Assembly (NCBI GenBank): GCA_965662725.1
Contig: CBFIIT010000001.1
Location: 83,350 to 147,349, forward strand
Origin: Alphaproteobacteria bacterium
GTDB taxonomy: Bacteria; Pseudomonadota; Alphaproteobacteria; RS24
Direction of reading: 5' to 3'
Length of the DNA stretch: 64,000 nt
Within the stretch, counting starts at the first letter, position 1. Every line of letters begins with the position of its first letter. The translations under genes were made by a program, and so were the position numbers. This document shows, piece after piece, positions 3,189 to 50,144 of this stretch. A model generated the notes under the pieces. The model worked only from the letters and a program-made list of their open reading frames with translations. It was not told the DNA's origin and did no database searches.

Positions 3189-3229
3189 ATGTAAGCGCGG
3201 CTTTGCCCTTATGCAGCCATAATCGCGGT

Positions 3230-3245
3230 TTAAAATTCGTTTAAC
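3230..3245. promoter_or_regulatory. Candidate CtrA-type box TTAA-N7-TTAAC
   Basis: The sequence ttaa aattcgt ttaac is an exact match to the alphaproteobacterial CtrA consensus spacing. It lies in the rsmI/lpoA-like divergent intergenic region and is the only canonical N7 site I found in an intergenic region of this window. Confidence 0.35.
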
Positions 3246-3270
3246 GTATTATCGGTAAACCATGCGCCTC

Positions 3271-3361
3271 GATTTGCTTCATGGCTTTGCTTCATGGATT
3301 TGCTTCATCGCTTTGCTTTATGATTTTACGTGGTGATTTTACTTCACGACTTTACTTCATC
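3271..3361. repeat. Tandem array, 13-bp unit x 7
   Basis: Read directly from the sequence: gatttgcttcatg / gctttgcttcatg / gatttgcttcatc / gctttgctttatg / attttacgtggtg / attttacttcacg / actttacttcatc. The array is non-coding, because 13 is not a multiple of 3. It sits between the divergent rsmI and lpoA-like genes. Confidence 0.9.
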
Positions 3362-3426
3362 AACCGGCGCAGATAGGGTCAGGCGCAGAAATAAGGATGT
3401 CTATAATTTTTGAAATCCGTCGCATA

Positions 3427-5109
3427 ATGTCCGCTTTTCGACCCCTCAAAAGGCGCGCGCCAGCCTTGCTTTCGCGTCCGCTCTCATCATTGGTTCGGCC
3501 CTTGGCTTCATCTTTGGCGCTCGCCGCCTTGGCCGGCTGTGCCGGCGCCCCATCAAAGCCCGCCGCACCGGCCAGCGTAAAAGCGCCGATAACCATTAGC
3601 GCACCGGCCCCTGTTTTAATGCCGATAGATAAGGCTGCCTATCCGCCCGCACCGCCGCGCGATGAAGAGGCGCGCATTATCGGTCTGCTTTTGCCAATCG
3701 GCGATGAGCGCGATGCGATACGTCAATTGGCCGGTCATCTTTATAATGCCGCGCAATTGGCCTTATTTGATAGCGGACAAAAAAATCTGGTGCTGCGCTT
3801 GCATGATACGCGCGGCACGCCGGACGCCGCTTTGGAGGCCGGTAAAGCGGCTTTATCTGCCAATGTGAATGTGCTGGTTGGGCCGCTTTTTGGAACCTCG
3901 GCCGCCGCTTTAAAGCCGCTTCTGGCCGGCCGCGATGTGCCGGCTTTTGCCTTTTCCAATGATGCCAGTGCTGCCGGTGACAATCTTTGGCTGCTAGGCT
4001 TTTTACCGGAACAAAATATCGACCGGATTGTTTCGGAAGCGATTGCCCAGGGCTTGACGCGCTTCGGTGCGTTAGTGCCGGAAGGGGTTTTCGGCGCCCG
4101 TATCGGCAATGATTTTGCGGCCTCGGTAGAGCGGTTTGGCGGCACTGTCATTCAAACGGAAACCTATCCGCCCGATGCTAAGGGCATGTTTGAACCGGTC
4201 AAAAGACTGGCGCAATTTGACCGCCGCAAAGCAGCCCATGCGGCACAAGTAAAACGGCTGGCCGATGAGGCTTTGGCGCTTTTGCCGGTTGACGAAAAGC
4301 TGGATGAAGAGAGCGGCGCAATGATTGCCGTGCCGCCGCCGGTTGAGCCGGAAGAAATATTTGCCGCTTTGGGCGATGCGGCGCCGGAATTGGTATCGGC
4401 TTATGAAGCTTTAAGCTTGACCGAAACCTTGGGCGATATTCCCTATGATGCGGTATTTATGCCGGAAGGCGGGTTGGCGTTGCGCAATTTGGCCCCGCTT
4501 TTACCGTATTTCGATATTGATCCGCGGCGGATTAAATTCATCGGCACGCGGCTTTGGGATGACCCGACTTTAAGCCAAGAGCCGCCTTTGCATGGCGGCT
4601 GGTTTGCCGCCCCGCCGGGCGTGAATTGGCAGGGCTTTGCCGCGCGCTATGAAAAAACCTATGGCGAGGTGCCGCCACGCTTGGCTTCCATGGCTTATGA
4701 TGCGGTCGCCTTGGCGGCGCGCCTGGCAACGATAAATGCCGAAGCACCGTTTCGACAAGAATTGCTGACCGACCCGAACGGCTTTGTCGGCATTGACGGT
4801 ATTTTGCGGCTGAAAGAAAACGGGCTGAATGAACGCGGCCTCGCCGTGCAAGAAATCACCCGCCGCAATACAAGAAATATTAGCGCCGCGCCCGATAGTT
4901 TTGTCGAGCATGACCGGCGGCTCCGCGCCGCCATCTCCTTGGCCGGCGCATTACGCTTGTCAAACCCTGACCGCGCCCTGTCGGGAAGTGACGCCGATGG
5001 CGAGGCTATTTTTGAAGCGGAAAATAATCCCGCCGCTTCGGCCGAAGCAGGGGAAACGCGTGAAACAAATCAAAACGGCGCGCAGCTTACGCCAATAAGC
5101 GGCCAATAA
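3427..5109 (+). CDS. Penicillin-binding-protein-activator (LpoA)-like / periplasmic ligand-binding (type I PBP fold) lipoprotein
   Basis: There is a signal peptide with a lipobox (LAALAGC). The central region resembles Leu/Ile/Val-binding-protein-fold LpoA-like proteins (GLLLPIGDE..., VLVGPLFG). The position divergent to rsmI is typical. The start is set at ATG 3427. Confidence 0.72.
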   Translation: MSAFRPLKRRAPALLSRPLSSLVRPLASSLALAALAGCAGAPSKPAAPASVKAPITISAPAPVLMPIDKAAYPPAPPRDEEARIIGLLLPIGDERDAIRQLAGHLYNAAQLALFDSGQKNLVLRLHDTRGTPDAALEAGKAALSANVNVLVGPLFGTSAAALKPLLAGRDVPAFAFSNDASAAGDNLWLLGFLPEQNIDRIVSEAIAQGLTRFGALVPEGVFGARIGNDFAASVERFGGTVIQTETYPPDAKGMFEPVKRLAQFDRRKAAHAAQVKRLADEALALLPVDEKLDEESGAMIAVPPPVEPEEIFAALGDAAPELVSAYEALSLTETLGDIPYDAVFMPEGGLALRNLAPLLPYFDIDPRRIKFIGTRLWDDPTLSQEPPLHGGWFAAPPGVNWQGFAARYEKTYGEVPPRLASMAYDAVALAARLATINAEAPFRQELLTDPNGFVGIDGILRLKENGLNERGLAVQEITRRNTRNISAAPDSFVEHDRRLRAAISLAGALRLSNPDRALSGSDADGEAIFEAENNPAASAEAGETRETNQNGAQLTPISGQ

Positions 5110-9722: not shown

Positions 9723-11657
9723 ATGGGCAAAGTAATCGGAATTGATTTGGGCACCACCAATAGCTGTGTCGCAGTGATGGATGGCAGCAGCGCGCGGGTG
9801 ATTGAAAATGCTGAAGGCGCGCGGACGACCCCGTCCATGGTTGCTTTTTCCGATGAAGGCGAGCGCCTGACCGGTCAACCGGCAAAACGCCAGGCGGTGA
9901 CCAATCCGCTAAACACGCTATTCGCCATTAAGCGTCTCATCGGCCGTCGGTTTGACGATAAGGCGACGCAAAAAGACAAAGAAATGGTGCCGTTTGAAAT
10001 TATCGCTTCTGATGGCGGTGATGCATGGGTGGAAGCAGCCGGTGAGAAATATTCGCCGTCGCAAATCTCTGCCTTTATTTTGCAGAAAATGAAAGAGACC
10101 GCCGAGGATTATCTCGGCGAAACAGTCACCCAAGCCGTGATTACCGTACCGGCTTATTTTAATGACGCGCAACGTCAAGCGACAAAAGATGCCGGTAAAA
10201 TTGCCGGTCTTGAGGTTTTGCGCATCATTAATGAGCCGACTGCGGCGTCGCTGGCTTATGGCCTGGATAAAAATGACGGACAGACAATTGCCGTTTATGA
10301 TTTGGGCGGCGGCACATTTGACGTCTCCGTTTTGGAAATCGGCGATGGGGTGTTTGAAGTCAAATCCACCAATGGCGATACGTTTCTTGGCGGTGAAGAT
10401 TTTGACATGGCTTTGGTCGAACATTTGGCCGAAGAATTTGAAAAAGAAAACGGCATTGATTTGCGTGGCGATAAGCTGGCCCTGCAACGCCTGAAAGAGG
10501 CGGCTGAAAAAGCCAAAATTGAATTATCTTCATCGGCGCAAACGGAAGTCAATTTGCCGTTCATCACCGCCGATGCCAGCGGTCCCAAACATTTGAACTT
10601 GAAACTGACCAAAGCGGCTTTTGAAGCCTTGGTTGAAAATCTGGTGCAGCGCACGCGCACACCGTGCGAAGCGGCAATGAAAGATGCCGGTATTTCATTG
10701 TCGGAAATTGACGAAGTGGTGCTGGTTGGCGGTCAAACTCGCATGCCGCGCATTCGTGAATTTGTCAAAGACGTGTTTGGCAAAGAGCCGAATATGAGCG
10801 TTAATCCGGATGAGGTGGTGGCCATGGGCGCAGCCATTCAGGCCGGTGTTTTGCAAGGCGATGTGAAAGACGTGCTGCTATTGGATGTGACCCCGCTTTC
10901 CTTGGGTATTGAAACCTTGGGCGGCGTCTTCACTCGTTTGATTGACCGCAACACAACCATTCCGACCAAAAAGAGCCAGGTGTTTTCAACCGCTGATGAC
11001 AATCAATCAGCGGTGACCATTTCAGTATGCCAAGGCGAGCGTGAAATGGCGGCGGATAATAAACATCTGGGTCAGTTCAATTTGGAGGGCATTCCGCCGG
11101 CACCGCGCGGCGTGCCACAAATCGAAGTGACTTTCGATATTGACGCCAATGGTTTGGTCAATGTGTCAGCTGCCGATAAAGCGACCGGCAAGGAACAAGC
11201 CATTCGTATTGAAGCCTCAGGCGGCTTGTCAGACAATGACATTGAGCAAATGGTGAAAGATGCGGAAGCCAATGCGACGGCGGATAAAGAGCGCCGCGAG
11301 CAGGTTGAAGCGCGCAATAATGCGGAAGGCCTGATCCATGCGACCGAAAAATCAATTGCTGAAAATGAGGCATTGATTGAGCCGGCCGATAAGGATGCGG
11401 CAGAAGCGGCCATGGCCGATTTGAAAACGGCGCTGGAAGGTGAGGATATGGATGCGATTAATGAAAAAGCGCAAACCCTCAGCCAGGCGGCGATGAAAAT
11501 CGGCGAAGCGGTTTACAAGGCACAGCAAGCGGAAAGCGAAGCGGCAGCCGCCGGTGACGCAGCAGCCGATGCAGCGTCTCAAGGCGATGACGGCAATGTC
11601 GTTGATGCCGAGTTTGAAGAAGTTGCTGATGATGATGGTGATCAAAAAGCCTCATAA
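9723..11657 (+). CDS. dnaK: Molecular chaperone DnaK (Hsp70)
   Basis: 644 aa. [23 protein letters not shown] and [10 protein letters not shown] are the Hsp70 signatures. Confidence 0.99.
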
Positions 11658-11682
11658 CGGCTGAACCGATTGGGGGGCCGCC

Positions 11683-12819
11683 ATGGCCAAAGCCGATTAT
11701 TACGAGCTTTTAGGGGTCGAGCGCGGGGCTGATGAAGCGACGCTGAAATCAGCCTATCGTAAGCTGGCAAAAAAATATCACCCTGATGTCAATCAGGGCG
11801 ATGCCGGTGCCGAGCAAAAATTCAAACAAGTGTCAGAAGCCTATGATGTGCTGAAAGACCCGCAAAGCCGTGCCGCTTATGACCAGTTCGGCCATGCCGC
11901 TTTTGAACAGGGCGGCGGCGGTGGTGGCTTTGGCGGCGGGCCCGGAGGCGGTTTTTCAGGCTTTGGCGATATTGGCGATATTTTTGAAGAGTTTTTCGGC
12001 GGCGGGCGCGGGCCGGGTGGCCAAAGCCAGAGCAGTCGACGACGCGCACGGCGCGGTGAAGATTTACGCGCTGAAATCAATATCAGCCTGCAAGAAGCCT
12101 ATGATGGCACGGAACGGCAAATCCGCCTGAACCGCGCCGCCTCTTGCGATGGATGTGGCGGCTCCGGTGCCAAACCGGGCAGCCAACCGAGCACTTGCGC
12201 GACGTGCCAAGGGCACGGCAAAGTGCGCGCGCAACAAGGCTTTTTCATGGTTGAGCGCACCTGCCATGCTTGTGGTGGCGCCGGCCAAACAATCAACGAC
12301 CCCTGCACCGATTGTCAGGGGCGCGGGCAAGTCAATCAAGAACGCACGCTTTCCGTATCCGTGCCCAGCGGGGTAGAAGACGGCACTCGTATTCGATTGT
12401 CGGGCGAAGGAAATGCCGGCCCGGGCGGGGCAGCGCATGGCGACCTTTATGTCTTTGTCAATATTGCACCGCATGATGTTTTAAGCCGCGATGGGGCTGA
12501 TTTATTTTGTGCCATGCCGATTGCGCTGGATGTGGCAGTGCGCGGCGGCACAGTCAATGTGCCGCTTATGGGTGGCAAAAAAGTCAAATTAAGCATTCCC
12601 GAAGGGGCCCATGCCGGCCAGCAATTCCGCTTGCGCGGGAAAGGCATGCCGGTTTTACGCTCGCGCCATTATGGCGACCTTTATGTGCAGATTGATATTG
12701 AAACGCCAAGCGGCCTAACCCGCGCCCAACAAAAACTGTTTGATGCTTTTGCCGATAGTCTTGATGACGGCAATTATCCTGAAATATCGGATTTTCGCGC
12801 GCGCGGCAAAAATAGCTGA
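11683..12819 (+). CDS. dnaJ: Molecular chaperone DnaJ (Hsp40)
   Basis: It has a J domain (DYYELLGV...KKYHPD), a G/F-rich linker and four CxxCxGxG zinc-finger repeats. Confidence 0.98.
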
Positions 12820-26323: not shown

Positions 26324-27157
26324 TTATGGCCGCTGGTCGCGGGCGCGTTCATGGTCGTGATATAAATTCATTATCGCGCTGGCAATCTCTTCTACCGATC
26401 GGCGCGTTACATCAATCACCGGCCATTTTTGCCGCGCAAACAACCGTCGCGCTTCGGCAATTTCCCCACGGATCAATTCCGGATCAACATATTCGGTTTC
26501 GCTATCCTCGTTTAGCGTCAAAAGCCGATTGCGGCGTATGGCCTGCAACCGCTCCGGACTATTGGTCAGGCCGACAACCAGCGGGTGGCTGGCTTTCAGC
26601 AATTCAGCCGGCGGGTCCATGCCGGGCACTAGCGGCACATTGGCGGCTTTAATGCCGCGATTGGCAAGATAAATACAGGTCGGGGTTTTTGACGTGCGCG
26701 ACACGCCGGTCAAAATTATATCGGCCTCATCCAAATCGCCTTGGCTTTGGCCATCATCATGCTGGATGGTATAATTAAGCGCATTGATGCGGCGAAAATA
26801 ATCCGTATCCATAGAGTGCTGGCGGCCCGGTTTGTTCGAAATCTCGACGTTTAGATAGGGCCCTAATTGTTCGACAAAGGGCTGTAAGACCGAAATACAC
26901 GGCACCCGCAGCGCATCGCATGTTTCATGTAATTTCTGTCGCAAACGATCATCCAAAATCGAATACATGACCGGGCCCGGGTTTTCTTTCAGCTCTTCCA
27001 ATACCCGTGCCAGCGCCTTTTGACCGCGCACCAGCCCATATATATGCTCGACCGGTTGCGCGTCGACAAATTGCGAACACACAGCGCGCGCCACCGCTTG
27101 AATGGTCTCACCGGTACTGTCGGAGATTAAATGCAGATGAAAATATGTGACGCTCAA
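26324..27157 (-). CDS. Pyruvate,phosphate dikinase / PEP synthase regulatory protein family (DUF299; RP001-like)
   Basis: FHLHLISDSTGETIQAVARAV and GVSRTSKTPTCIYLANRGIKAANVPLVPG are kinase/pyrophosphorylase signatures. The start is TTG. Confidence 0.88.
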   Translation of the reverse strand: MSVTYFHLHLISDSTGETIQAVARAVCSQFVDAQPVEHIYGLVRGQKALARVLEELKENPGPVMYSILDDRLRQKLHETCDALRVPCISVLQPFVEQLGPYLNVEISNKPGRQHSMDTDYFRRINALNYTIQHDDGQSQGDLDEADIILTGVSRTSKTPTCIYLANRGIKAANVPLVPGMDPPAELLKASHPLVVGLTNSPERLQAIRRNRLLTLNEDSETEYVDPELIRGEIAEARRLFARQKWPVIDVTRRSVEEIASAIMNLYHDHERARDQRP

Positions 27158-27587
27158 AGGGCGCTCCGATATGGCTCGGGTGACAGTTAATTATGTGAAT
27201 AATGAGGATAAGTCGCACCGTGCGGCAAGCCAAGAAATTTTGTCCCCGCTGCCATTTTCTCATCCCGCGGTTTAAAGCGATTTATTAACTCGATAAAACC
27301 TCTCTGTGGAAACAGGGAAGAAAAAAATGTTGCCGTAATATGCCTATTAATCCCCCTTATTAACAAAATTCACATATCAAAAAATCGCTGGGTTTATTAG
27401 CTTTTTGAAAAAAATAATAAGCTTTTGGGGAAAAATTCGCGCTATCCCCATAGTTCACCCTGCTTTATCACCAAAGGCGCAATTGGGGAGAAATCTGTGC
27501 GAAACCAGTAATCAACAGAAATTGCCTGTGACAACAACAACAACATCCTTTTATTTAATTAATAAACAAAAAGAGGTAAGCACAAGC
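27158..27587. other. Predicted chromosomal replication origin (oriC / Cori-type)
   Basis: This is the largest spacer in the window and is AT-rich, with A/T tracts at 27361-27425 and 27541-27575. It contains these DnaA-box-like 9-mers: TGTGAATAA (27194), TGAGGATAA (27203), TGTGGAAAC (27305), TGGGGAAAA (27426), CTATCCCCA (27442), TTATCACCA (27465) and TGGGGAGAA (27484). It is flanked by the conserved hemE / RP001-like origin gene cluster. Confidence 0.65.
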
Positions 27588-28625
27588 ATGGTTGAAAACA
27601 GCACCCAATCAAAAAAGCTTTTGGCAACTCTCGCAGGTGACCTAACCGGGGCCCCTCCGATTTGGCTGATGCGCCAAGCAGGGCGTTATTTACCCGAATA
27701 TCGAGCGACACGCGAACAAGCAGGTGGTTTTCTGGATTTATGTTATAACCCGCAACTGGCTGAAGAAGTCACGTTGCAACCAATCAGACGCTTCGGTTTT
27801 GACGCATCTATTTTATTTGCCGATATTTTGCTTATCCCCGAAGCTTTGGGACAAAAATTATGGTTTGAGACCGGTGAAGGGCCGCGATTGACGCCGATTG
27901 AAAATGGTGACGTGCTATCGCTCGATAATGCGCAAGCGCATTTAGCACCAATTTTTGAAACTGTGCGCCGTTTGTCGAACAGTCTGCCCGAACAAACAAC
28001 CCTTATCGGTTTTGCCGGCGCGCCATGGACAGTAGCCAGCTATATGGTTGCCGGTCGCGGGACGCCCGACCAGGCGCCGGCGCGTGATTTGGCGCAAAAA
28101 GACCCGGCTGCATTTCAATCGATTATCGATATTTTGATTAGTGCCAGTATTGATTATTTGGCAGCGCAAGTAGCAGCCGGAGCGGAGGTTCTACAAATTT
28201 TTGAGAGCTGGGCGGCATCACTTAAAGGCGACGCTTTTGAGCGCTGGTGTATTGCCCCGGTGGCGGCAATAATTAGCGGCTTACGCGCGCGCGGCATTGA
28301 TGTGCCAATTATCGCTTTTCCGCGTGCTGCTGATTATCATATGGGCGCTTATTGCACGCAAACCGCCTGCACGGCGCTGGGCTTGGATACGTCAGCCGAT
28401 TTGGATGCGATACGCGCCGAGGTCGGGCCTGATATGGTATTGCAAGGCAATCTCGATCCGCAAATATTGGTCGCCGGTGGTGCATCACTGGAGCAAGCGG
28501 TTCGGGATATTCTTGCGCGGACACAAAATACGCCGCATATTTTCAATCTCGGTCATGGCATTGTGCCGCAAACACCGCCGGAAAATGTCGGCCGATTAAT
28601 AGAGCTTATTCGCGAGACAGGCTGA
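27588..28625 (+). CDS. hemE: Uroporphyrinogen decarboxylase
   Basis: PIWLMRQAGRYLPEYR is the signature near the N-terminus when translation starts at ATG 27588, which has AAGAGG 11 nt upstream. The track's 61-aa extension (27405-27587) runs through the AT-rich spacer and has no HemE counterpart. Confidence 0.95.
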   Translation: MVENSTQSKKLLATLAGDLTGAPPIWLMRQAGRYLPEYRATREQAGGFLDLCYNPQLAEEVTLQPIRRFGFDASILFADILLIPEALGQKLWFETGEGPRLTPIENGDVLSLDNAQAHLAPIFETVRRLSNSLPEQTTLIGFAGAPWTVASYMVAGRGTPDQAPARDLAQKDPAAFQSIIDILISASIDYLAAQVAAGAEVLQIFESWAASLKGDAFERWCIAPVAAIISGLRARGIDVPIIAFPRAADYHMGAYCTQTACTALGLDTSADLDAIRAEVGPDMVLQGNLDPQILVAGGASLEQAVRDILARTQNTPHIFNLGHGIVPQTPPENVGRLIELIRETG

Positions 28626-30502: not shown

Positions 30503-31192
30503 TTAACCGAGTGCTTTTGCAAACATTTCCAAGCTTCGCCCATGCGCCAATTCAGTCGCGGCCGCATCATAATGCATACCATTATGACGGGCGAAAGCAT
30601 GGTCTTGACCCTGATAAATATGCACTTGCGCTTTTGTGTGTGCCCGCAAAGCCGTGGCAATGGCAGTTTGCGCGTCTTGCGGCACAAACTCATCTTCTGC
30701 CGCAATATGAATAAGTGTTGGCGCGGTAATATTATCGGCCTCGCCCAATAAATCTTGAATGCCGACCCCGTAATAAGAGGCATGTGCGTCACCATTGGTG
30801 CGACAGGCGGCGAGATAAACCATACGGCCGCCAAGACAAAATCCGATTGTCCCGACTTTGGCACACCCTTGCGCGCGGAGATAATCGATTGCTGCTTGAA
30901 TATCATGAACCCCTTCATCGCCATCATATCCATTCATCAGCGCAAAGGCTTTTTGCCATTCTTCTTCCGAACCATCGCTCAGAGAGACATTGCGCTCTTG
31001 TCGCCAAAATAAATCCGGTGCCAGCGCCAAATAGCCTTCTTCGGCCAACCAATCGGCGGTTGCTTTAATGTCGCCATTGACGCCGAAAATTTCTTGAATG
31101 ACGATTATCCCGGCTTTCGGCGCAGTGCTCGGCCGCGCCAAATAGCCGTCAAAATGTTCATCGCCGATATTTATTTTTACTGTTTCACCCAT
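30503..31192 (-). CDS. Dienelactone hydrolase family protein
   Basis: 229 aa. It has an alpha/beta-hydrolase fold with the GFCLGG nucleophile elbow and typical DLH length. Confidence 0.85.
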   Translation of the reverse strand: MGETVKINIGDEHFDGYLARPSTAPKAGIIVIQEIFGVNGDIKATADWLAEEGYLALAPDLFWRQERNVSLSDGSEEEWQKAFALMNGYDGDEGVHDIQAAIDYLRAQGCAKVGTIGFCLGGRMVYLAACRTNGDAHASYYGVGIQDLLGEADNITAPTLIHIAAEDEFVPQDAQTAIATALRAHTKAQVHIYQGQDHAFARHNGMHYDAAATELAHGRSLEMFAKALG

Positions 31193-31209
31193 TATCCGCT
31201 CCCGTCACA

Positions 31210-33303
31210 TTAATCGTGTATCGCTTCATTCATGTCAGTCTGTCTTTCCACCACCAGCGCGTCAAGCGCCGCGTTCAGCTCTGCAACGTCCGTCAGGGGC
31301 GGGCGGCAGCTTTGCCCGGGGCAGATATAAACGGCGGCTTGACCCTTTATAAGCGCCTTGCCATGCGCCGGATGCGAAGGCGGCAAGGCGCTGTCAGGCG
31401 GCAAGCGCAAAACATGTCGTGAAATTATCGGATGCGCCAAGGCGGCGCGCTCCAATGATAAGGCGGCCGCATCATCACCGATAATTATGATCGAAAGCGG
31501 ATGGCATTGCGATAAATGCGCCGATAAGAGGGCGGTCATGGACGGATAATTTTGTGCCAAATGGCCGGCTAAAGCATTAAACCCATCGGCCGCCCGTGCC
31601 AGCCATAGAGGCTCGCCGGTAATCACGCCAAGCGCTTGAAACAAGGACAGGGCGACGGCATTGGCAGAGGGTTGTGCATTGTCTTGCACCGGTCGATTAT
31701 TGACCAGCAGGTTTTCTTGGGCCTGCCGATTGCTGAGATAGCCGCCGCGCGTCTCGTCATGAAATCGCTGGTGTAAAAGCTGCGCATAGTGAAGCGCATC
31801 ATCGAGATAGGCTTGCCGGGCTGTCGCCTCATAAAGCGCCACGGCAGCGATGCCGAAAAACCCGTAATCTATCGATAGCGATATTGGCAGAACAGTGCCG
31901 TCGCGCGCGGCATGGCGCATATGAAGCTCGCCGTCACTTGTTTCATCGCTAAGGGCTGTCTGGGCTGCTGCATAGGCGGTTTCGGCCATGCCCAGCCAGT
32001 CATCGCGTGCGAATTGCCGCGCCGCGCCGGCCAGCGCGGAAATCATCATGGCGTTCCAATCGGCCAGTATTTTATCATCGCGGCCGGGCGCAATGCGTTG
32101 ATTGCGAAGCGCCAATAATTGAGCGCGCGCGGGTTTTTGTTGGTCTTGTGGCGCATCCCCTTGCGCCAGTAAGTTTGGAATATTACGGCCCTCGAAATTG
32201 CCTGTTTCGGTAATGTCATATAGGGCACAAAAGCTTGCCGCCTCGGCGCCCAAAGCGGCATTAATTTCACTTTTATCCCAAAGGTAAAATTTGCCCTCTT
32301 CGCCTTCCGTATCGGCATCAAGGCTGGCTGCGAAACAGCCATTATCAACCAGCATTTCGCGGGCCAGCCAGTCAATGGTTTCTTCAATGCGGGACTTAAA
32401 TAAGGGCTCGCTACTGTCGCGATAAAGCGAGGTCAAAAGCTCAACCAGCAACGCATTGTCATAAAGCATTTTTTCAAAATGCGGCACCAGCCAATCGGCA
32501 TCGACACTATAGCGCGCAAAGCCACCACCAATATGATCATATATGCCGCCTTGGCAGATTTTGCGCGCACTGATCAGCACCGCTTCTTTAATCGCCGCAT
32601 CGCCGGATAATTGTGCTTGCTGCCAGATGAATTGATAAAGAAACGGTTGTGGAAATTTCGGCGCACCGGCCAAGCCGCCTTTTTCCAAATCTATATGCTC
32701 GGACAGGGTTTTGGCGGCGCGCGCCGGTAGGTCGGCCGGCATGGCCCCGCGCGCATCGGCTTTTGCTTTGGCGGTTAAGGATTGCGTCAGCGCTTTTGTA
32801 TTGGCGGCAATCTTATCGGGTGTTTCATGCCAGACGCGGGAAATCTCGTTTAGAATTTGGATAAAACCCGGTCGCCCATATTGCGGTGTTTTTGGAAAAT
32901 ATGTGCCGCCCCAAAACGGTGCGCCGTCAGCGTCCAGACATATGGTCAACGGCCAGCCGCCCTGTTCGCCCATCATCGCCAAGGCGCTCATATATATCTC
33001 ATCCAAATCGGGGCGCTCTTCGCGGTCCAGCTTGATGCAAACAAAATGCGCATTCATCAAAGCGGCGACCTCCGCATCTTCAAAACTTTCATGTGCCATC
33101 ACATGACACCAGTGACACGCCGCATAACCGATCGATAAAAGAACCGGCATATTGCGCCGCCGCGCCTCGTCAAACACGGCCGCTTCCCATGGCTGCCAAT
33201 GCACCGGATTATCTTTGTGTTGCAGTAAATACGGGCTGGTCGCCGCGCCGAGGCGATTGCGGGAAAAAAGCGCGGTTTGGTCGGGATTGCGTTTATCGGT
33301 CAT
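31210..33303 (-). CDS. Thioredoxin-domain protein, DUF255/YyaL (N-acylglucosamine-2-epimerase-like) family
   Basis: [17 protein letters not shown]...[17 protein letters not shown] is the DUF255 thioredoxin-like motif, followed by a six-hairpin glycosidase-like C-terminal region. The start is set at ATG 33303. Confidence 0.85.
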
Positions 33304-33393
33304 CTCAGGCAGTTTAGCCGCAATTCGAAACTGTCTCAGCATAAAGATGACAATCGAGCCTTTTTAAATGAGTGAGATAATTGAGCGAGAGAG

Positions 33394-34737: not shown

Positions 34738-34753
34738 TGTTTCACGTGAAACA
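34738..34753. other. parS centromere-like site (perfect palindrome TGTTTCACGTGAAACA)
   Basis: It is an exact 16/16 match to the ParB-binding parS consensus and lies in the mnmE-mnmG intergenic region. Confidence 0.85.
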
Positions 34754-36760: not shown

Positions 36761-37435
36761 ATGAGCAAAGCACAGACACACAGCATAGCACCGCAAACCG
36801 CCGAGGCCTTTGCGGCACAGTTTGATGTTTCACGTGAAACATTGTCTCGCCTGATGGCCTATCAGGCACTGCTTGGCAAATGGCAAAAATCGATTAATTT
36901 GGTTGGGCCGGCGACTTTGCAGCATTTCTGGTCGCGCCATGTCGCAGATTCAGCACAAATATTGACGCATGCGCCGCGCCAAGCGCTGTGCTGGCTGGAT
37001 TTGGGTAGTGGCGCGGGTTTTCCGGCCTTGGTGCTGGCCATTATGCTGGCTGAAAGACAGCCCTTGGCGCATATGCACATGGTTGAGAGCGACCGCAAAA
37101 AGGCCAATTTTTTGCGCATGGTGCTAGCCGAAACCGGCGTTTCAGCCAGTGTGCATCATAACCGCATTGAGGGGCTGGCAAAGCAGCAGCTTGCGGCTTT
37201 AAATAAGGTGGATATTATCACCGCGCGCGCTTTGGCCGGATTGGCTGATTTGCTCGCTTTGATGCAGCCATTTTACAATTCATCCACAATTGCGCTGCTG
37301 CATAAGGGGCGCAATTGGCAGGAAGAATTGACCGCGGCACAACAATATTGGAAACTGACAATTGAAACTCATCATAGCTTGACTGATGATGGCGCCCGCA
37401 TTTTGGCACTGCGCGATCTACAGCCAAAGCCCTAG
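36761..37435 (+). CDS. rsmG: 16S rRNA (guanine527-N7)-methyltransferase RsmG (GidB)
   Basis: VSRETLSRLMAYQALLGKWQKSINLV and LDLGSGAGFPALVLAI (SAM motif) are present. Confidence 0.93.
   Translation: MSKAQTHSIAPQTAEAFAAQFDVSRETLSRLMAYQALLGKWQKSINLVGPATLQHFWSRHVADSAQILTHAPRQALCWLDLGSGAGFPALVLAIMLAERQPLAHMHMVESDRKKANFLRMVLAETGVSASVHHNRIEGLAKQQLAALNKVDIITARALAGLADLLALMQPFYNSSTIALLHKGRNWQEELTAAQQYWKLTIETHHSLTDDGARILALRDLQPKP
36826..36841. other. parS centromere-like site (perfect palindrome TGTTTCACGTGAAACA) inside rsmG
   Basis: It is an exact 16/16 match to the consensus. In the rsmG frame it encodes D-V-S-R-E-T. Confidence 0.85.
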
Positions 37436-37455: not shown

Positions 37456-38289
37456 GTGTCATCCCCCGTTTCTTCAGACCCTAAAAGCGCCGCGCCGCGG
37501 GTGATTTGCTTGGCCAATCAAAAGGGTGGCGTCGGCAAAACCACGACAGCAATCAATCTCGGCACGGCTTTGGCGGCGATTGGTGAGCCGGTTTTGCTGA
37601 TTGATATGGACCCGCAAGGCAATGCCTCGACCGGTCTTGGCATTGACCGCACGGCGCGCGAGAAAACCAGCTTTGATGTGCTGCTTGGCGAGGCCTCATT
37701 GGCCGAAGCCATTTGTGATACGGCTGTGCCGGGCTTTGCGCTTTTGCCGGCCAGCATGGATCTTTTGGGTGTTGAGGTTGAGCTGGCTGATAATCCGCGC
37801 CGCCTTTATCGCCTGACTGATGCGCTGAAAGAATTTACCGCCTCAAACGATGGCAGCCGCTTTTCCTATATTTTTATCGACTGCCCACCGTCTTTGAATA
37901 TGCTGACGTTGAATGCCATGACTGCCGCACAATCGGTTTTGGTGCCGCTGCAATGCGAGTTTTTTGCGCTGGAAGGGTTGAGCCAGCTTTTGCAAACCAT
38001 TGAGCAGGTTAAAGGCGGGCTAAATCCGGCTTTGGATATTCAGGGTATTGTGCTGACCATGTATGATGCGCGAAATAATTTATCGGCGCAGGTCGATGCA
38101 GATGTGCGCGGGCATTTTGACGGTTTGGTTTACGAGACGCTTATCCCGCGCAATGTGCGTGTTTCGGAAGCGCCCAGTCATGGCAAACCGGCGCTTTTAT
38201 ATGATCATAAATGCAGCGGCTCGCTGGCTTATATGAAATTAGCCAGCGAATTGGTGCGGCGCGAAGAAAAGCGTCGGCACGCGGCCTGA
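37456..38289 (+). CDS. parA: Chromosome partitioning ATPase ParA
   Basis: The deviant Walker A motif is ANQKGGVGKTTTAINL. The start is GTG and the gene lies upstream of parB. Confidence 0.95.
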   Translation: MSSPVSSDPKSAAPRVICLANQKGGVGKTTTAINLGTALAAIGEPVLLIDMDPQGNASTGLGIDRTAREKTSFDVLLGEASLAEAICDTAVPGFALLPASMDLLGVEVELADNPRRLYRLTDALKEFTASNDGSRFSYIFIDCPPSLNMLTLNAMTAAQSVLVPLQCEFFALEGLSQLLQTIEQVKGGLNPALDIQGIVLTMYDARNNLSAQVDADVRGHFDGLVYETLIPRNVRVSEAPSHGKPALLYDHKCSGSLAYMKLASELVRREEKRRHAA

Positions 38290-38321
38290 GGGTAGCGCGC
38301 GAAAGGACGGGAGATAATAAT

Positions 38322-39230
38322 ATGAGCGACACCGGAAAAAGAGGTTTGGGGCGCGGCCTGTCAGCGCTAATAGGCGATGCAGCAGCCCAACCGATTGCCG
38401 CCTCAGCAACAGAAAATGCGGTAGATGCGGCTAAAAATGATGGCTTGACCTATCTTGGCATCGACCAATTACAAGCCGGTCAATTTCAGCCACGCAAATT
38501 TTTTGATGAAAGCGAATTGGACGCATTGGCCGCTTCTATTGGCAAATCCGGTGTGTTGCAACCGCTATTGGTACGTGCGTTGGACGGCGATAAATATGAA
38601 ATCATCGCCGGGGAAAGACGCTGGCGGGCGGCCCAAAAAGCGCAATTACATCAGCTCCCGGTAATTATCCAGCCGGTTAATGACATTACCGCTATGGAAA
38701 TCGGATTGGTCGAAAACGTGCAGCGTGCTGACCTCAATCCGATTGAAGAAGCTGAGGGATATCAAAGGCTTATCGATGAATTTGCCTATACGCAAGCAGA
38801 GCTGGCTGAGACCATTGGCAAGAGCCGCAGCCATATTGCCAATTTATTGCGGCTGACCGGTGCGCCGGTTGTGCTGCGCGATGCGCTCATCAATGGGCGT
38901 CTTGGCATGGGTCATGCGCGCGCGCTTCTGGCTTTGTCATTATCGGGTGATGAGATGGCCGCTTTGGTGAAACAAATCATTAGCCAAGGTTTAAGCGTTC
39001 GGGCAGTGGAGAAGCTGGCGGCCACGAAAAAGCCGAAAAAATCAACTGCCCGTGCCGATCGAACAACAGAAAAAACGGCTGATACGCGGCAGGTTGAGAA
39101 ACAATTGGCGGATGCGCTGGGACTTCATGTATCACTTGATGACCGGGCGGAAAAGGGCGGTAGCCTGACAATAGATTACAAGACATTGGAGCAATTGGAT
39201 GCGTTGATTGCGCGTCTTATCAGCCGATAA
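38322..39230 (+). CDS. parB: Chromosome partitioning protein ParB
   Basis: KRGLGRGLSALI is at the N-terminus and IAGERRWRAAQ is the ParB box. An HTH region is present. ATG 38322 follows an AGGACGGGAG Shine-Dalgarno-like region, and the track start at 38211 lies inside parA. Confidence 0.95.
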   Translation: MSDTGKRGLGRGLSALIGDAAAQPIAASATENAVDAAKNDGLTYLGIDQLQAGQFQPRKFFDESELDALAASIGKSGVLQPLLVRALDGDKYEIIAGERRWRAAQKAQLHQLPVIIQPVNDITAMEIGLVENVQRADLNPIEEAEGYQRLIDEFAYTQAELAETIGKSRSHIANLLRLTGAPVVLRDALINGRLGMGHARALLALSLSGDEMAALVKQIISQGLSVRAVEKLAATKKPKKSTARADRTTEKTADTRQVEKQLADALGLHVSLDDRAEKGGSLTIDYKTLEQLDALIARLISR

Positions 39231-39271: not shown

Positions 39272-40319
39272 AACGTTTGGCAGCGCCGGCAATGCGCAAA
39301 AGCGCATTACCGGTTTGCGCTGAGGCCATGGCTGTATTGGCCCCACGGCAGTCGCGCTCCGCTTGATTTAAAATCTCCAAGGCGCGCGCACATTTGGCCG
39401 AAGTCCATAGCCGCATCTGCTCTTCAACCAGAGGCTTGCGCCGAAAATGCAAAGGCGGTCTGAAGCTGCTTATCGCTTTGCTTTGCGGTGTGCCGCTTTC
39501 CATTAACCCCAAAGCCAAATGCAATGTTTGAAAATGCAAACGTGCCATTACCAAAACCGAGGCGGCGGTGCTGCCGGCATCAAACAGTCGGCTCAAGGCT
39601 TTATCGGCCGTCGCCAAACGCCCCAAAGCAATTTGGTCAATAAGCTGGTCCATTGTGCCTTGTGTTTGATCGCCAAGCGCCAGATCGATATCTTCTGCAC
39701 TGATAAGACCGGACTCGCCTTTTTTGAGTACCCCTTTGAACAATACCAGCCGTTCAATCTCGCGCTGGATGATGCCGCGATCGGTTGCCAAGCGGGCGCA
39801 TAAAAGATCCAAGGCCTGCGCGTCAATGCGATAATTTTCGCCTTCCAAATATTGCCGCGCCAAGCGCGCAATATCTCGTGCCTCCAGCGCATAACAAGGT
39901 ATCGCCATTGCCGCCTTATCGGCTTCGACATTTTTGCGCAATGCGGCGGCCGGTCGTAAATTACCGCTTTCAATAATGACCATGGCCGATAAAGCGGCGG
40001 GCAGGTTTGCCAAATAAAGGCGCACCGCTTCCGGCACCGCGCCGCCGCCGCCGCTAATATGAACGAGTTTTTGTTCGCCAAACATCGGCAGAGCACCGGC
40101 TTCATCGGCCAATAGGCCGGGCTGGCCGGCAAATGCGCTTTCGTCAAAAGCAGCATATTGAAGCGGGTCAAAATCTTTGCCCAAATAGGCTGCCTTTAGT
40201 GCTTTGGCGGTTTCGTGCACGCCGCCCTGGTCGGGCCCATAAACCAAAACCAAAGCCGGCGCATTGGCTGCTTTCAGCTTTTGCACATAAGCTGTTGCTT
40301 CATGCGCCTTTAATTTCAT
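39270..40319 (-). CDS. holA: DNA polymerase III delta subunit
   Basis: 349 aa. The N-terminus has ALVLVYGPDQGGV, and HolA length plus position downstream of lptE-leuS fit the conserved leuS-lptE-holA order. Confidence 0.82.
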   Translation of the reverse strand: MKLKAHEATAYVQKLKAANAPALVLVYGPDQGGVHETAKALKAAYLGKDFDPLQYAAFDESAFAGQPGLLADEAGALPMFGEQKLVHISGGGGAVPEAVRLYLANLPAALSAMVIIESGNLRPAAALRKNVEADKAAMAIPCYALEARDIARLARQYLEGENYRIDAQALDLLCARLATDRGIIQREIERLVLFKGVLKKGESGLISAEDIDLALGDQTQGTMDQLIDQIALGRLATADKALSRLFDAGSTAASVLVMARLHFQTLHLALGLMESGTPQSKAISSFRPPLHFRRKPLVEEQMRLWTSAKCARALEILNQAERDCRGANTAMASAQTGNALLRIAGAAKR

Positions 40320-40819
40320 TGACGATTTCCGCCTATGCGCTGCGATAATTGCAAAACCAATTGCTCGGCAATTTGCTCGCTGATCAATTGTAGGACAATT
40401 TCTTCATCGCGCAATTGATCGGCACCGCTGTCTTGACGGGCAATGGTTTGTGTCTCATTCAGGCTGAAGCTTTGTGCCTTGCCGTTTTCCTTGTCGCGTA
40501 ATTGCACGCGCAGGTTCAAGCCGATTTCAATCCGCTCTGCGACACCGTCCCTATCGACTTGTCGTTTTTGCCGCGCCAGCGTGCTGTCAATAATAAGTCG
40601 ATAGGGCGCCGTATCTGATAATTGATAGCGGCCCTCCAGGGCGCTGCGTAAATTTTGCGCCGCCGGTCCGTTAACTTTCACCGAGGCCAGTGTAATCTGC
40701 CCGCCCTGCATTTTATAAACCGGCGTGAAGCCGCATGCAGCCAATGTGAAAGAGAGCGCACAGATTAGACCCAGAACCATTTGGCGGGCGGTCAAAAGGG
40801 TGCTTGATGTGTCCGCCAT
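40316..40819 (-). CDS. lptE: LPS-assembly lipoprotein LptE
   Basis: The signal peptide has a lipobox (FTLAAC). It has LptE size and position immediately downstream of leuS. The start is set at ATG 40819, because the track extension overlaps leuS. Confidence 0.72.
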   Translation of the reverse strand: MADTSSTLLTARQMVLGLICALSFTLAACGFTPVYKMQGGQITLASVKVNGPAAQNLRSALEGRYQLSDTAPYRLIIDSTLARQKRQVDRDGVAERIEIGLNLRVQLRDKENGKAQSFSLNETQTIARQDSGADQLRDEEIVLQLISEQIAEQLVLQLSQRIGGNRQ

Positions 40820-40871
40820 TTTGGCACTGAAGCGGGTTGGCAGTGCTGTGACCGCCGTGTTCGCTGCGGGT

Positions 40872-43445
40872 TTAGCCGACCACCAAATTGACAATTCGCC
40901 CGGGGACGATAATGGTTTTTTTAATCTCTTGCCCATCAATGAATTTCTCCACTGCCGGCTCAGCCAGCGCAATCGCTTCAATCATATCCTGATTGGCATC
41001 TGCCGGCACGGAAATTTCGGCCCGCTTTTTACCGTTTATCTGAACCGGCAGGCTCACACTATCGGCGATTAAAACGCTTTCATCCGCCAGCGGCCACGGC
41101 GCATTGGCGACCAGCCCTTTCCGGCCCAATTTTTGCCAGCCGCTTTCTGCTAAATGCGGCATCATCGGGGCCAATAATTGCGCCAAAACACCAAGCGCAT
41201 ACTGGCGCGTTGCATTGGCTTGCGCCCCTTCAGCTTTAAATCCGGCAATCGCATTGACCAATTCATAAAGCTTGGCAACGGCGCGATTAAAACCCAAAGC
41301 GGTTAAATCATCGCCAATACCCTTAACCGCCGCTTGCACATTTTTATAAAGCTGCAGACAGCTTTCATCTTCCGGCACGGCAAATTTTTCATTTTGCGCA
41401 TCTGCACCCGCTGTCTCGAACAATCGCCAGACGCGCTGCACAAAACGCCATGCCCCCTCGACACCATCTTGTGTCCATTGCACATCGCGCTCGGGCGGGC
41501 TGTCAGACAACATAAACCAGCGCGCCGTATCAGCCCCATAGCGGGCGATAATATCATCCGGGTCGACGACGTTTTTCTTCGATTTGGACATTTTCTCAAC
41601 CGCGCCGATTTTCACCTTAATGGTTTCATCGGCTGCCAATACGGCCTGCTTGTCACGGCGAATAATATCTGACGGGGCCAGCCAATTTCCGTCGCCATCT
41701 TGATAGGTTTCATGACAGACCATACCTTGCGTAAACAATCCGTCAAACGGCTCATCAAGACCGACATGGCCGGTTTTATGCATGGCGCGGGTAAAAAAGC
41801 GCGAATACAGCAAATGCAAAATCGCATGCTCAATGCCGCCAATATATTGATCGACCGGCAACCAATAATCGACGGCCGCAATATCGGTCGGGCCGTCTTC
41901 AATCGGCGCGGCAAAGCGGGCGAAGTACCAGCTACTGTCAATAAAAGTGTCAAATGTATCAGTTTCGCGCTGTGCCGGTTTGCCACAAGACGGACAATCA
42001 ACATGTTTCCAACTGGGGTGATGGTCGAGCGGATTGCCGGGTTTTTCAAAACTGATATCTTCGGGCAAAGTTACCGGCAGCGCGTCGCGCGGCACCGGCA
42101 CAGTGCCGCAATCATCGCACAGCACTATCGGTATCGGGCATCCCCAATAACGTTGCCGCGAAATGCCCCAATCGCGAAGGCGAAAATTAACCCGTTTTTT
42201 GCCAAGCTTATCGGCCTCAAATTCAGCAATCAGTTTATCGCGCGCATCGGCCGGGCTCATCCCGTTCAGCGCCGCCGAATTAACCATCACCCCGTCGCCC
42301 GTATAGGCGGTATCGGTGACGGTGAAATCAGCTTCATCTTTCGGGCGCACAACCGTGCGCACCGGCAAGTCATATTTCAACGCAAAATCCAAATCGCGCT
42401 GGTCATGCGCCGGACAGGCAAAAACTGCGCCCGTGCCATATCCCATTAAAACAAAATTGGCGACATAGACCGGCAAATGCCAATCTTCATCCAGCGGATG
42501 ATGGACAAAAAGACCGGTATCAAAACCGAGTTTTTCTCCCGCCTCAATATCCGCTTCCGAAGTGCCGCGGCGCGCGCATTCGGCCCGGAATTCAGCCAAG
42601 CTTTGATTGTCTTTGGCCAGGTCAATGGCCAGCGGATGGTCCGGTGAAATGGCACAAAAACTGGCCCCATATAATGTATCGGGGCGGGTGGTATATATTT
42701 CCAGACGCTCATGCACCCCATGGCTTTGGGTCAAGCGAAATGCACATTCCAAACCTTCCGACCGACCGATCCAATTGGCCTGCATCAGCCGTACTTTTTC
42801 CGGCCAGCGCTCAAGCCCATCCAGCGCGGTTAATAAGTCATCGGCAAATTCTGAAATGCGCAAAAACCATTGCGTCAATTTTTTCTGCTCAACCGGTGCG
42901 CCCGAGCGCCAGCCCTTGCCGTCAATTACCTGCTCATTGGCCAGAACCGTCATATCGACCGGGTCCCAATTGACGATGCTTTCGCGTCGGTCGACCAAGC
43001 CGGCTTGCACAAAGTCGAGAAACATGGCTTGCTCATGGCCGTAATAAGACGCATCGCAAGTAGCAAATTCGCGGCTCCAATCAATCGATAGGCCAAGCTT
43101 TTTCAATTGCCCGCGCATCGCGTCAATATTGTCATAAGTCCAACTGGCCGGATGGGTGTTTTTCTCCATGGCGGCATTTTCGGCCGGCATGCCGAATGCA
43201 TCCCAGCCCATCGGATGCAGCACATTATAGCCTTGCGCTTTTTTAAACCGCGCCACCACATCGCCCATTGCATAATTGCGCACATGGCCCATATGGATGC
43301 GCCCCGATGGATAAGGGAACATTTCCAAGACGTAATATTTTGGCTTGTCTTTATCGGCCTCGGCTTTAAAGCAATCGGCTGCTTCCCAAGCGGCCTGCCA
43401 ATGGCTTTCGTGCTCGTCGGGTTGATAGCGTGACGCGTCACTCAT
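40872..43445 (-). CDS. leuS: Leucine--tRNA ligase
   Basis: 857 aa. [15 protein letters not shown] is the HIGH motif and KMSKSKKN is the KMSKS motif. Confidence 0.98.
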
Positions 43446-48551: not shown

Positions 48552-49811
48552 ATGAGTGAGCCAATGTCCAAAACCGGCGGCCATAAATCCGAATGGCGGC
48601 TGCGGCAAGTAACCGATGAGTTAAACGCGCGTCCGTTTCCGCGCTTTTCCCTGCCGACTGCGATTTTTCGTCTTTGTCTTTCCGGCGATGAGGCGTTTGA
48701 CGGTTTGCGCGCCCTATTGGAAGGGATGTTGCCGGATCTCGATTGGGATGGCGGCGGTCGGCTGATGCGCACCAGGCTGGGCGATGTGCAGTTCAATATT
48801 GAGCGGCATACGGAATTCATCTCGCTGACCTTAATAGATGAAAAAGCCGAACAAGGTTCGGCGGCACAGCATTTGCCGGAAGACTGGGCATCAAAAACCC
48901 GCGGCGAGATTGTCGTGGCGGTGGATTGCCAATGCAGCATAAGCGGCGCGGCGCGAGATGGCTGGACATGCGCCAGCACTTTGGATAACGGGCTGGCCGA
49001 TGTGTTCTTCGATTTTAAAGTGGCGGAAGACGGGCACACGAAAATCGCTTTGGATTTTGCCGCCGATACGGATGTGCGCGATATTGGCCGCATTGCCTTG
49101 CAAGTTATGGAAATAGAGACCTATCGTTCTTTTGCCGCTATTGGCTTGCCCTTGGCGCGCGCCGCGCAGGCACAAATGACCGAAATCGCCGCGCGTGTGC
49201 CGACAGCAGCGGAAAGCATGGGCGATGCTAATGGCGCGGCGGCGGAAAGCGCGCGCTTCTCTGTGCTCAGCGGTTTGACCGGCGAGTTGGAAGATGTATG
49301 GCGGCGCACTTCATTTCGATTTGCAGCTTGCAGCGCCTATTGGGATTTGGTGACGGCGCGCTTGGCGCAGCTAAATGAAAAAGCCTTTGATAATCGCATC
49401 ACGGTTGGCGGGTTTTTGGAGCGCCGCTTGCAGCCGGCGATTGCCACCTATAATGCGACCGAGCGTCGTCGCCATGATTTGGTCGAGCAAATTGCCGCCA
49501 TGACCGGCCTTTTGCAGACCCGCATTGAACTGGATATGCAGCAGCAAAATGCCGATCTTTTAACCTCTTTAAACCATGCAGCGGAACGCCAATTGCGTTT
49601 GCAGCATACGGTGGAGGGTGTCTCGACCGTTGCGATTTCTTATTATTTGGTCAATTTATTGGATGCGCCGGCCGCCTATTTAATCGCCGCCATGCCATGG
49701 CTTGACCCGCTGGTCGTGCGCATGGCTTTGGTGGCCATTGCCGTGCCCGTGGTATGGCTATTAATCCGCCGCTTGCTGCGGGCAACTGTCGGGCGCGATA
49801 AGAAAGAATAG
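48552..49811 (+). CDS. DUF3422-type membrane-anchored protein of unknown function
   Basis: 419 aa. It has a large soluble N-terminal region and two C-terminal TM helices (VSTVAISYYLVNLL; VVRMALVAIAVPVVWLLI). It resembles DUF3422 by overall architecture. The family assignment is from memory and was not searched. Confidence 0.65.
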   Translation: MSEPMSKTGGHKSEWRLRQVTDELNARPFPRFSLPTAIFRLCLSGDEAFDGLRALLEGMLPDLDWDGGGRLMRTRLGDVQFNIERHTEFISLTLIDEKAEQGSAAQHLPEDWASKTRGEIVVAVDCQCSISGAARDGWTCASTLDNGLADVFFDFKVAEDGHTKIALDFAADTDVRDIGRIALQVMEIETYRSFAAIGLPLARAAQAQMTEIAARVPTAAESMGDANGAAAESARFSVLSGLTGELEDVWRRTSFRFAACSAYWDLVTARLAQLNEKAFDNRITVGGFLERRLQPAIATYNATERRRHDLVEQIAAMTGLLQTRIELDMQQQNADLLTSLNHAAERQLRLQHTVEGVSTVAISYYLVNLLDAPAAYLIAAMPWLDPLVVRMALVAIAVPVVWLLIRRLLRATVGRDKKE

Positions 49812-49902: not shown

Positions 49903-50144
49903 AATGCCAGAACGCCCAAGCTTATGCACCATCGCCGCTCATTTGACAAGCGTCATCTTATCAAGAGATAGTAAATCCCATGTTTTTCATGGCGGCATTT
50001 TGCCCCCTTGGAAAAACCACATTAACTGCCCATTTACGGTATAGAGAAACGACACCCGTTAACCGAATTGGGGCGCCAAATTAAGGCCCTTTTATAAACC
50101 AAGACCGACGCCGCTTGCGACAAGCCGCAAAGCCAGAGGATAAA

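Follow-up and report, generated by a model that had tools for sequence, protein, structure and literature searches.

The 430-bp spacer at positions 27158-27587 of the DNA studied here, a 64-kb stretch of contig CBFIIT010000001.1 that we call the window, lies between a gene for a DUF299/PpsR-like regulator and hemE, and very probably serves an uncultured marine-type alphaproteobacterium as its chromosomal origin of replication (oriC). The initial annotation had read the spacer in the same way, and the reading is now supported by a conserved cluster of DnaA boxes, by synteny, by a switch in GC (guanine-cytosine) skew located after correction for gene orientation, by the least stable duplex of the window and by parS sites 7-9 kb away. 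DnaA binding, the unwinding site and the firing of the origin are all predicted from the DNA. An oriC linked to hemE is at the place expected for the class, hemE-linked origins having been known since the work on Caulobacter and Rickettsia; what is unexpected is a CAA-type triplet tract next to the presumed unwinding site and the lack of control motifs of the Caulobacter type. For an uncultured marine lineage of alphaproteobacteria, a located oriC gives a fixed point for assigning replichores, for checking assemblies by skew and for peak-to-trough estimates of growth rate.

The spacer has a GC content of 39.5%, compared with 53.5% across the window, and the two A/T tracts pointed out in the initial annotation reach 77% AT at 27361-27425 and 80% AT at 27541-27575. 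The claim that this is the longest non-coding spacer also holds, because the two longer gaps left by a crude greedy map of open reading frames (ORFs), at 37758-38210 and 40320-40871, are occupied by parA (37456-38289) and by a 221-aa ORF (40316-40981), respectively. ORFs inside the spacer are short and unconserved, besides a TTG upstream extension of hemE (27405), a start that we rejected as unsupported (the hemE profile alignment begins at residue 11 of the 345-aa form). At the gathering threshold, an Rfam scan of the whole window gave tRNA-Gly as its sole match, and a permissive scan of the spacer returned no known RNA family, its output consisting of a low-complexity match to CrcZ (20.4 bits, gathering score 95) and a chance match to a viral pseudoknot.

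When both strands were scanned for the 9-mer DnaA-box consensus TTATCCACA with mismatches counted, nine boxes with up to two mismatches were found in the spacer, where at least seven DnaA-like 9-mers had been claimed. Two of them, neighbours on the - strand at 27194-27202 and 27203-27211, deviate from the consensus at one position. Dinucleotide-preserving shuffles of the spacer contain 1.42 +/- 1.12 boxes at the same tolerance, and not one shuffle out of 2000 attained nine; with up to one mismatch, the two observed boxes compare with 0.10 expected (P = 0.0035). Since the count exceeds that of such shuffles, AT-richness alone is insufficient as an explanation. The spacer ranks top for boxes among all 430-bp stretches of the 64 kb, and six other intergenic regions hold 0-2 boxes each, so that, as in origins of the Cori type (named after that of Caulobacter crescentus), there is a box cluster above chance and without equal elsewhere in the window.

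Relatives were collected by a scan with the hemE protein, keeping one genome per species, which gave 80 loci, and synteny in them was assessed by tblastn with ten window proteins. The nearest ones (L001-L006, hemE identity 67-81%, about 80% for the closest) are metagenome-assembled genomes labelled Phyllobacteriaceae, Alphaproteobacteria or Rhodobiaceae. Most of the 80 loci share the order dnaQ…DUF299 | hemE…mnmG, and in 68 loci the spacer between DUF299 and hemE is clean, with a median length of 432 bp and a mean GC of 50.7%, compared with 59.8% for the loci. Boxes exceed the spacer's own shuffles in all 68 cases (mean 5.85 versus 1.12), at a density of 13.4 per kb versus 1.7 per kb in the remainder of the locus. 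One member of the set (L010, the 872,865-bp contig JBNOAI010000001.1) is titled Leptospira interrogans strain LS0056 and has 61.6% GC and the complete alphaproteobacterial dnaQ…DUF299|hemE…mnmG synteny; judged by these features, an alphaproteobacterium has probably been misnamed or is a contaminant here, in this contig alone or throughout the assembly. L060 (62.2% GC), which carries the label Deltaproteobacteria, resembles this case.

Alignment of the window spacer with those of L001-L006 revealed conserved islands amid otherwise scrambled DNA, and 14 of the islands are DnaA-box-like. Identity to the window across the six relatives is 71% in box columns and 42% in other spacer columns (Mann-Whitney p = 1e-14), and substitutions within boxes tend to exchange accepted box variants. 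Nearest to the DUF299 gene is a left array of three abutting, head-to-tail box-like 9-mers on the - strand (27185-27211), made up of TTATCCTCA (27203-27211), nearly invariant in the seven genomes, TTATTCACA (27194-27202), which is exact TTATCCACA in L004, and a weak TAATTAACT (27185-27193), whose counterpart in L006 is TTATTCACA. It is followed on the + strand by the variant TTGTCCCCG in a conserved block (27240-27248; TTGTCCACA, with one mismatch, in L005 and TTGTTCACA in L006) and on the - strand by a weakly conserved GTTTCCACA (27305-27313), which has two mismatches in the window and in L003 and is degenerate in the remaining relatives. The middle array (27348-27374, + strand) again consists of three abutting boxes, TAATCCCCC, TTATTAACA and AAATTCACA, which read TTATCCCCG / TTATTCACA or TTATCCCCA / TTATTCACA in relatives; this triplet pairs with the left one as an inverted repeat of 21 nt (I1; partner 27356-27376) with 143 bp between its arms. 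Beyond the linker described below there are TTTTCCCCA on the - strand (27426-27434), a direct repeat of 27483-27494 (family D4), and then the right array on the + strand (27442-27473), with CTATCCCCA at 27442-27450, TAGTTCACC at 27451-27459 and TTATCACCA at 27465-27473, for which relatives carry TTATCCCCA / TTATTCACA / TTATCCACA-type sequences. The series ends with TTCTCCCCA on the - strand (27484-27492), which has at most two mismatches in six of the seven genomes and three in L005, and with the + strand box TAATCAACA (27509-27517), which we call the anchor box since it faces the predicted unwinding site. The anchor has two mismatches and a clade-invariant TAATC..CA; at its position there is TAATCCACA (one mismatch) in L005 and TAATCCCCA in L006.

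The 51 bp that follow the middle array (27375-27425, 76% AT) are conserved among the relatives neither in sequence nor in length (alignment columns about 250-330), and for this reason the segment is probably a flexible linker and not a conserved unwinding site. As a candidate for the primary DNA unwinding element (DUE) it was rejected, being also less unstable than 27549-27573. A 20-nt direct repeat with a 21-nt period (ATTAGCTTTTTGAAAAAAAT / ATAAGCTTTTGGGGAAAAAT) and a 13-nt near-palindrome are found in this central part of the spacer, at 27396-27436, and could constitute a bending or nucleoid-protein site.

The hemE-proximal end holds the most conserved non-coding block, which reads, in order, the anchor box TAATCAACA, 14 nt, CAACAACAACAACAT-CC and TTTTATTTAATTAATAAACAAAAAG. 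The gap between the anchor box and the triplet repeat (27518-27531) is constant in length and variable in sequence: in each of the seven clade genomes, 14 nt separate the box from the first CAA, and this intervening sequence is G+C-rich in the relatives. The highly conserved repeat itself, (CAA)4CAT at 27532-27546 or, read in another phase, (ACA)5 at 27531-27545, is a candidate deviant DnaA-trio tract, and the adjoining TTTTATTTAATTAATAAACAAAAAG (27549-27573, 92% AT), overlapping the region just upstream of the hemE Shine-Dalgarno sequence (AAGAGG, 27571-27576), is the predicted DUE. It is the least stable 25-mer of the 64 kb (nearest-neighbour dG -23.1, mean -35.6, sd 3.5), just as 27541-27580 is the least stable 40-mer, so that the AT-rich unwinding region of Cori-type origins has its counterpart here. 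Of 12 relatives examined, 11 have the least stable 25-mer of their spacer at the equivalent site, and the trio and DUE columns are 78% conserved, compared with 37% for the columns coding for the hemE N-terminus.

This module recalls the basal unwinding system (BUS) of Bacillus subtilis, predicted in 85% of bacterial origins and defined by a box that deviates from the consensus at two positions at most, followed after 0-16 bp (mode 13) by three or more NAN trios (Pelliciari et al. 2021, PMC8287927). Because the supplement of that work notates each BUS as AATAGGTGT-spacer-trios, the trios sit on the strand complementary to the box consensus, and CTA on the hemE strand therefore corresponds to the canonical 3'-GAT-5' (PMC8287927). 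In B. subtilis the amino group of the central adenine contacts Asn187, and replacing this adenine by C is tolerated, whereas A-to-T or A-to-G changes reduce origin activity (PMC10721633). The window follows the same order and geometry (a box, TAATCAACA, with two mismatches to TTATCCACA, a 14-nt spacer, at least three trinucleotide repeats and, distal to them, the 92%-AT tract), and is likewise directional, the arrangement occurring only on the strand that runs into the AT tract. It differs from the B. subtilis BUS (DnaA-box 6/7) in having one anchor box and no tandem pair, and in a complement that reads 3'-GTT-5', with a central T, instead of 3'-GAT-5'. The distance from box to trios is 14 nt when the CAA repeat is counted as trios, and 27 nt when only canonical NAN trios (3'-TAG GAA AAT AAA-5') are counted, the rule being 0-16. 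Since the central-adenine rule is broken, we do not class the element as a canonical BUS; its geometry is BUS-like, and a BUS as its ancestor is suggested by the comparative series.

That series is provided by the relatives. Canonical CTA (= 3'-GAT-5') triplets occur at the homologous place: the tract is a CAA/AAA/CTA mixture in L005 and L006 and a CTA/CAA or CTA/CAA/CAT mixture in L017, L042 and L046, and in Parvibaculaceae a triplet tract follows two abutting boxes and GGC. When a run was strictly defined as a box with no more than two mismatches, followed after 0-16 nt by three or more C[AT][AT] triplets, 10 of 69 spacers had one on the hemE strand and none on the other strand, with 0.2 in shuffles. 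(ACA)n as a class-wide motif was rejected, being present in only 7 of the 68 relatives; what is class-wide is the broader order of box, triplet tract and AT tract. The BUS 11-mer given for the Parvibaculum lavamentivorans origin in DoriC (PMC8287927) is found, among 81 loci, only in the DUF299-hemE spacers of five Parvibaculaceae loci, which ties a whole-genome origin prediction to the DUF299-hemE site. In L008, L023, L038, L048, L049 and others, a + strand DnaA box is followed, about 60-100 nt upstream of hemE, by a few bases and a CTAATAAGA-type sequence, and many Hyphomicrobiales spacers carry this junction. CTAATAAGA is the same string as the complement of the right 13-mer beside R1 in Escherichia coli oriC, and the junction suggests a deeply conserved pairing of box and trios.

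The relatives thus offer a natural sequence-variation series on the trio rule, from canonical CTA through mixed CAA/CTA to pure CAA, at a fixed 14 nt from a conserved box. At its end, we tentatively propose, stand the window and L001-L004, in which the DnaA-trio tract of the unwinding module may have been wholly replaced by (CAA)4CAT, so that the strand engaged by the DnaA filament would read 3'-GTT-5', without a central adenine or cytosine, and the opposite strand would hold A and C only. Were this proposal, which we put forward with some doubt, to be true and the origin to fire through (CAA)4CAT, it would be a natural case of the 'deviant DnaA-trio' speculated upon by Pelliciari et al.; DnaA would then either read another triplet or engage the opposite strand, and the missing CtrA, IHF and GANTC sites, discussed below, would accompany a simplified control logic.

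It is also possible, though we doubt it, that (ACA)5 and the A/U-rich tract are part of the hemE mRNA leader, forming an (AAN)n site for the distal face of Hfq or an unstructured translational enhancer and no DnaA-trio/DUE module, which would be compatible with an oriC in the spacer. With the Shine-Dalgarno sequence at its end, the block occupies the stretch 15-57 nt upstream of the hemE ATG, (AAC)4 fits the AAN/ARN pattern, the weak match mentioned above is to the CA-motif small RNA CrcZ, and the canonical trio rule is violated. Yet an RNA leader leaves unexplained why the repeat keeps 14 nt from a DnaA box despite drifting sequence; the homologous CTA triplets of relatives are no ARN motif and are the exact complement of canonical 3'-GAT-5' trios; and nowhere in the 64 kb is the duplex less stable than in the tract. 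A leader role and an unwinding role need not be mutually exclusive, because in Caulobacter the hemE promoters are part of Cori, and replication depends on transcription from one of them (PMC6393856).

Further evidence for an origin in the spacer comes from nucleotide skew. Across the window, the uncorrected cumulative G-C curve is lowest at 27658, but since raw skew tracks gene orientation, the skew of each of 63 genes was fitted by regression to its orientation and to the side of the spacer on which it lies. For third codon positions (GC3 skew) the side term is +0.064 +/- 0.014 (t = 4.5), for all positions +0.023 +/- 0.006 (t = 3.6), and a scan of all possible breakpoints gave the best fits at 25-28.5 kb. 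The GC3 skew of + strand genes is -0.033 to the left and +0.140 to the right of the spacer; for - strand genes it is -0.094 and -0.030, respectively. The G-rich strands diverge, and this sign is that of an origin and not of a terminus. A sign switch with origin polarity, as is general for oriC, is therefore found within the 64 kb.

The gene neighbourhood points to the same place. To the left of the spacer, all on the - strand, NCBIfam models identify dnaQ, coaE, aroE, maf and the DUF299/PpsR-like gene (26324-27157; NF003742, E = 3e-100), the orthologue of RP001, COG1806 and CCNA_00001; to the right, on the + strand, lie hemE (uroporphyrinogen decarboxylase, 27588-28625; TIGR01464, E = 4e-116), hemJ and rho. 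Two - strand genes (30503-33342) come next, then mnmE, mnmG, rsmG, parA and parB (the last two at 37456-39230), followed by holA and leuS on the - strand. The initial annotation had listed this cluster, with the names gidA and gidB and without the two - strand genes inserted between rho and mnmE. These two encode a YghX-like hydrolase (229 aa) and a 710-aa protein without an NCBIfam match at E <= 1e-10; rho and mnmE are separated by a gap of comparable size in L001-L006, so that the clade as a whole probably has the insertion. The parS palindrome TGTTTCACGTGAAACA occurs twice with 0 mismatches, at the start of mnmG (34738-34753) and within rsmG (36826-36841), both times inside coding sequence and upstream of parAB. 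There are three parS-like 16-mers with up to three mismatches in the window, where 0.24 are expected. The perfect sites, 7-9 kb from the spacer, are an independent mark of the region as origin-proximal, with parS consensus sites near both parAB and the presumed origin. Elsewhere in the window, a 570-aa ORF (3397-5109, +) and a 419-aa ORF (48552-49811, +) match no NCBIfam family at E <= 1e-15.

Several observations weigh against the assignment of oriC to this spacer. An exact TTATCCACA does not occur in it, and the strand complementary to the anchor box reads 3'-GTT GTT GTT GTT GTA-5' and thus lacks three or more consecutive NAN trios. None of the large ORFs of the window matches DnaA, dnaK-dnaJ (9723-12819, + strand) would be head-on to the leftward fork, and gene orientation is mixed on the left flank (17 - and 13 + genes, compared with 23 + and 10 - genes on the right), all three of which had been raised as caveats in the initial annotation and are borne out. 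The skew evidence spans 64 kb of the replicon, and the conserved blocks beside the two genes could partly be promoter or 5' untranslated region elements. As for the left flank, its mixed gene orientation does not outweigh the third-position skew, in which the mutational signal is clear.

One could accordingly ask whether the spacer is a divergent DUF299/hemE promoter region and nothing more, with box-like motifs that are transcription-factor or promoter elements and an origin lying outside the window, for example near dnaA, a gene that the window lacks. Promoters of both genes must lie in the spacer, a - strand CTTGGC-N17-TATCCT (a weak -35/-10 pair, 8/12, read by eye) overlaps the invariant TTATCCTCA box, and the conserved AT-rich tract adjoins the hemE Shine-Dalgarno sequence. 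We consider a promoter region alone improbable, since 14 conserved box positions in three arrays far exceed the needs of a DnaA-regulated promoter, a scan for sigma-70 and terminator consensus sequences gave no match within 27158-27587, the orientation-corrected skew switch is located at the spacer, parS sites are close by, and mapped alphaproteobacterial origins sit at hemE, away from dnaA (PMC6393856, PMC1914354).

The boxes could also serve DnaA without serving initiation. Clusters of them outside origins occur in other bacteria, and all those in the spacer are imperfect, as might suit a DnaA-titrating or reactivating locus (datA- or DARS-like) or a relic origin that no longer fires. This seems most improbable, because the cluster is attached, with constant spacing, to a conserved module of the unwinding type, falls where the skew switches and keeps the same syntenic place across the class, and because the functional Caulobacter origin likewise has only weak and moderate boxes (PMC6393856).

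If the spacer is oriC, initiation might proceed as follows. DnaA-ATP would fill about 14 boxes of low to moderate affinity, none of them an exact TTATCCACA and many of the TTATCCCCA type, in three arrays: the - strand triplet by DUF299, the inverted + strand triplet 143 bp off and the right-hand array, which closes with the anchor TAATCAACA. From the anchor box, the DnaA oligomer would reach over the fixed 14-nt spacer and across the 15-nt triplet repeat, and would melt the neighbouring 25 bp (27549-27573, 92% AT), which lie directly upstream of hemE and would receive the helicase. One fork would then run leftward via DUF299-maf-aroE-coaE-dnaQ and the other rightward via hemE-hemJ-rho…parAB.

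The control of such an origin may be different from that of Caulobacter, where Cori has five sites for CtrA, one for IHF and five GANTC sites (PMC6393856). The window spacer differs in having none of these motifs: CtrA sites (TTAA-N7-TTAA, up to one mismatch) are absent from 27158-27587, the nearest one being at 27127-27141, within DUF299, the IHF consensus WATCAANNNNTTR has no match in the spacer, and GANTC, the CcrM site, does not occur there. In its lack of CtrA motifs the window resembles the chromosomal oriC of Sinorhizobium meliloti, which has no CtrA-binding motifs and to which CtrA does not bind (PMC4433202); CtrA sites are thus non-universal, and their absence falls within known variation in the class. 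GANTC is the most depleted NNxNN word of the window, with 11 occurrences (at 2620, 9059, 30465, 36947, 39712, 44777, 49843, 50414, 51218, 54867 and 56364) where 247.5 are expected from base composition (obs/exp 0.044) and 94.7 from a third-order Markov model. The clade shares this scarcity, with ratios of 0.03-0.13 in L001-L006, compared with a median of 0.52 in the other hemE loci of alphaproteobacteria. The depletion points to a GANTC-specific restriction pressure of long standing, or else to selection of unusual strength against CcrM sites. CtrA-type sites are present elsewhere in the window: a perfect TTAA-N7-TTAA overlaps a one-mismatch site (3219-3244) in a 208-bp intergenic region (3189-3396), and three one-mismatch sites are clustered in intergenic DNA beside tRNA-Gly (50022-50154). 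They may mark promoters under CtrA control, unlike the presumed origin, which is free of CtrA sites. An origin lacking all three Caulobacter-type control motifs, in a lineage nearly free of GANTC, goes modestly beyond the routine, as does the series on the trio rule.

The closest known counterparts are Caulobacter crescentus Cori and the Rickettsia prowazekii origin, which the initial annotation had correctly placed between hemE and RP001 (DUF299). Cori-type origins are defined by an intergenic position between hemE and the COG1806-DUF299 gene within the dnaQ…parB cluster (PMC6393856, PMC1914354), and the window shares with both species the boundary genes and the cluster dnaQ-coaE-aroE-maf-DUF299 | hemE…rho, mnmE, mnmG, rsmG, parAB. 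The sizes are similar, with 404 bp in Caulobacter, 384 bp in Rickettsia and 430 bp here (PMC1914354), and, like Cori, the window spacer has several weak or moderate DnaA boxes, none perfect, and an AT-rich region on the hemE side (PMC6393856). It differs from Cori in having about 14 boxes instead of 7, set as abutting triplets. The S. meliloti origin, which is hemE-linked as well, is unrelated to the window in DNA sequence, and Hyphomicrobiales loci show a box followed by CTAATAAGA-type triplets and no CAA repeat. Compared with E. coli oriC, the window lacks the GATC/SeqA system, the 13-mer repeats and the IHF consensus, and its boxes abut with a 9-bp period, whereas those of E. coli follow an 11-bp period. 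What the window does share with E. coli oriC, with its DUE-R1 module and its left and right DnaA-oligomerisation regions, is the general layout of opposed box arrays with an AT-rich DUE flanking one end.

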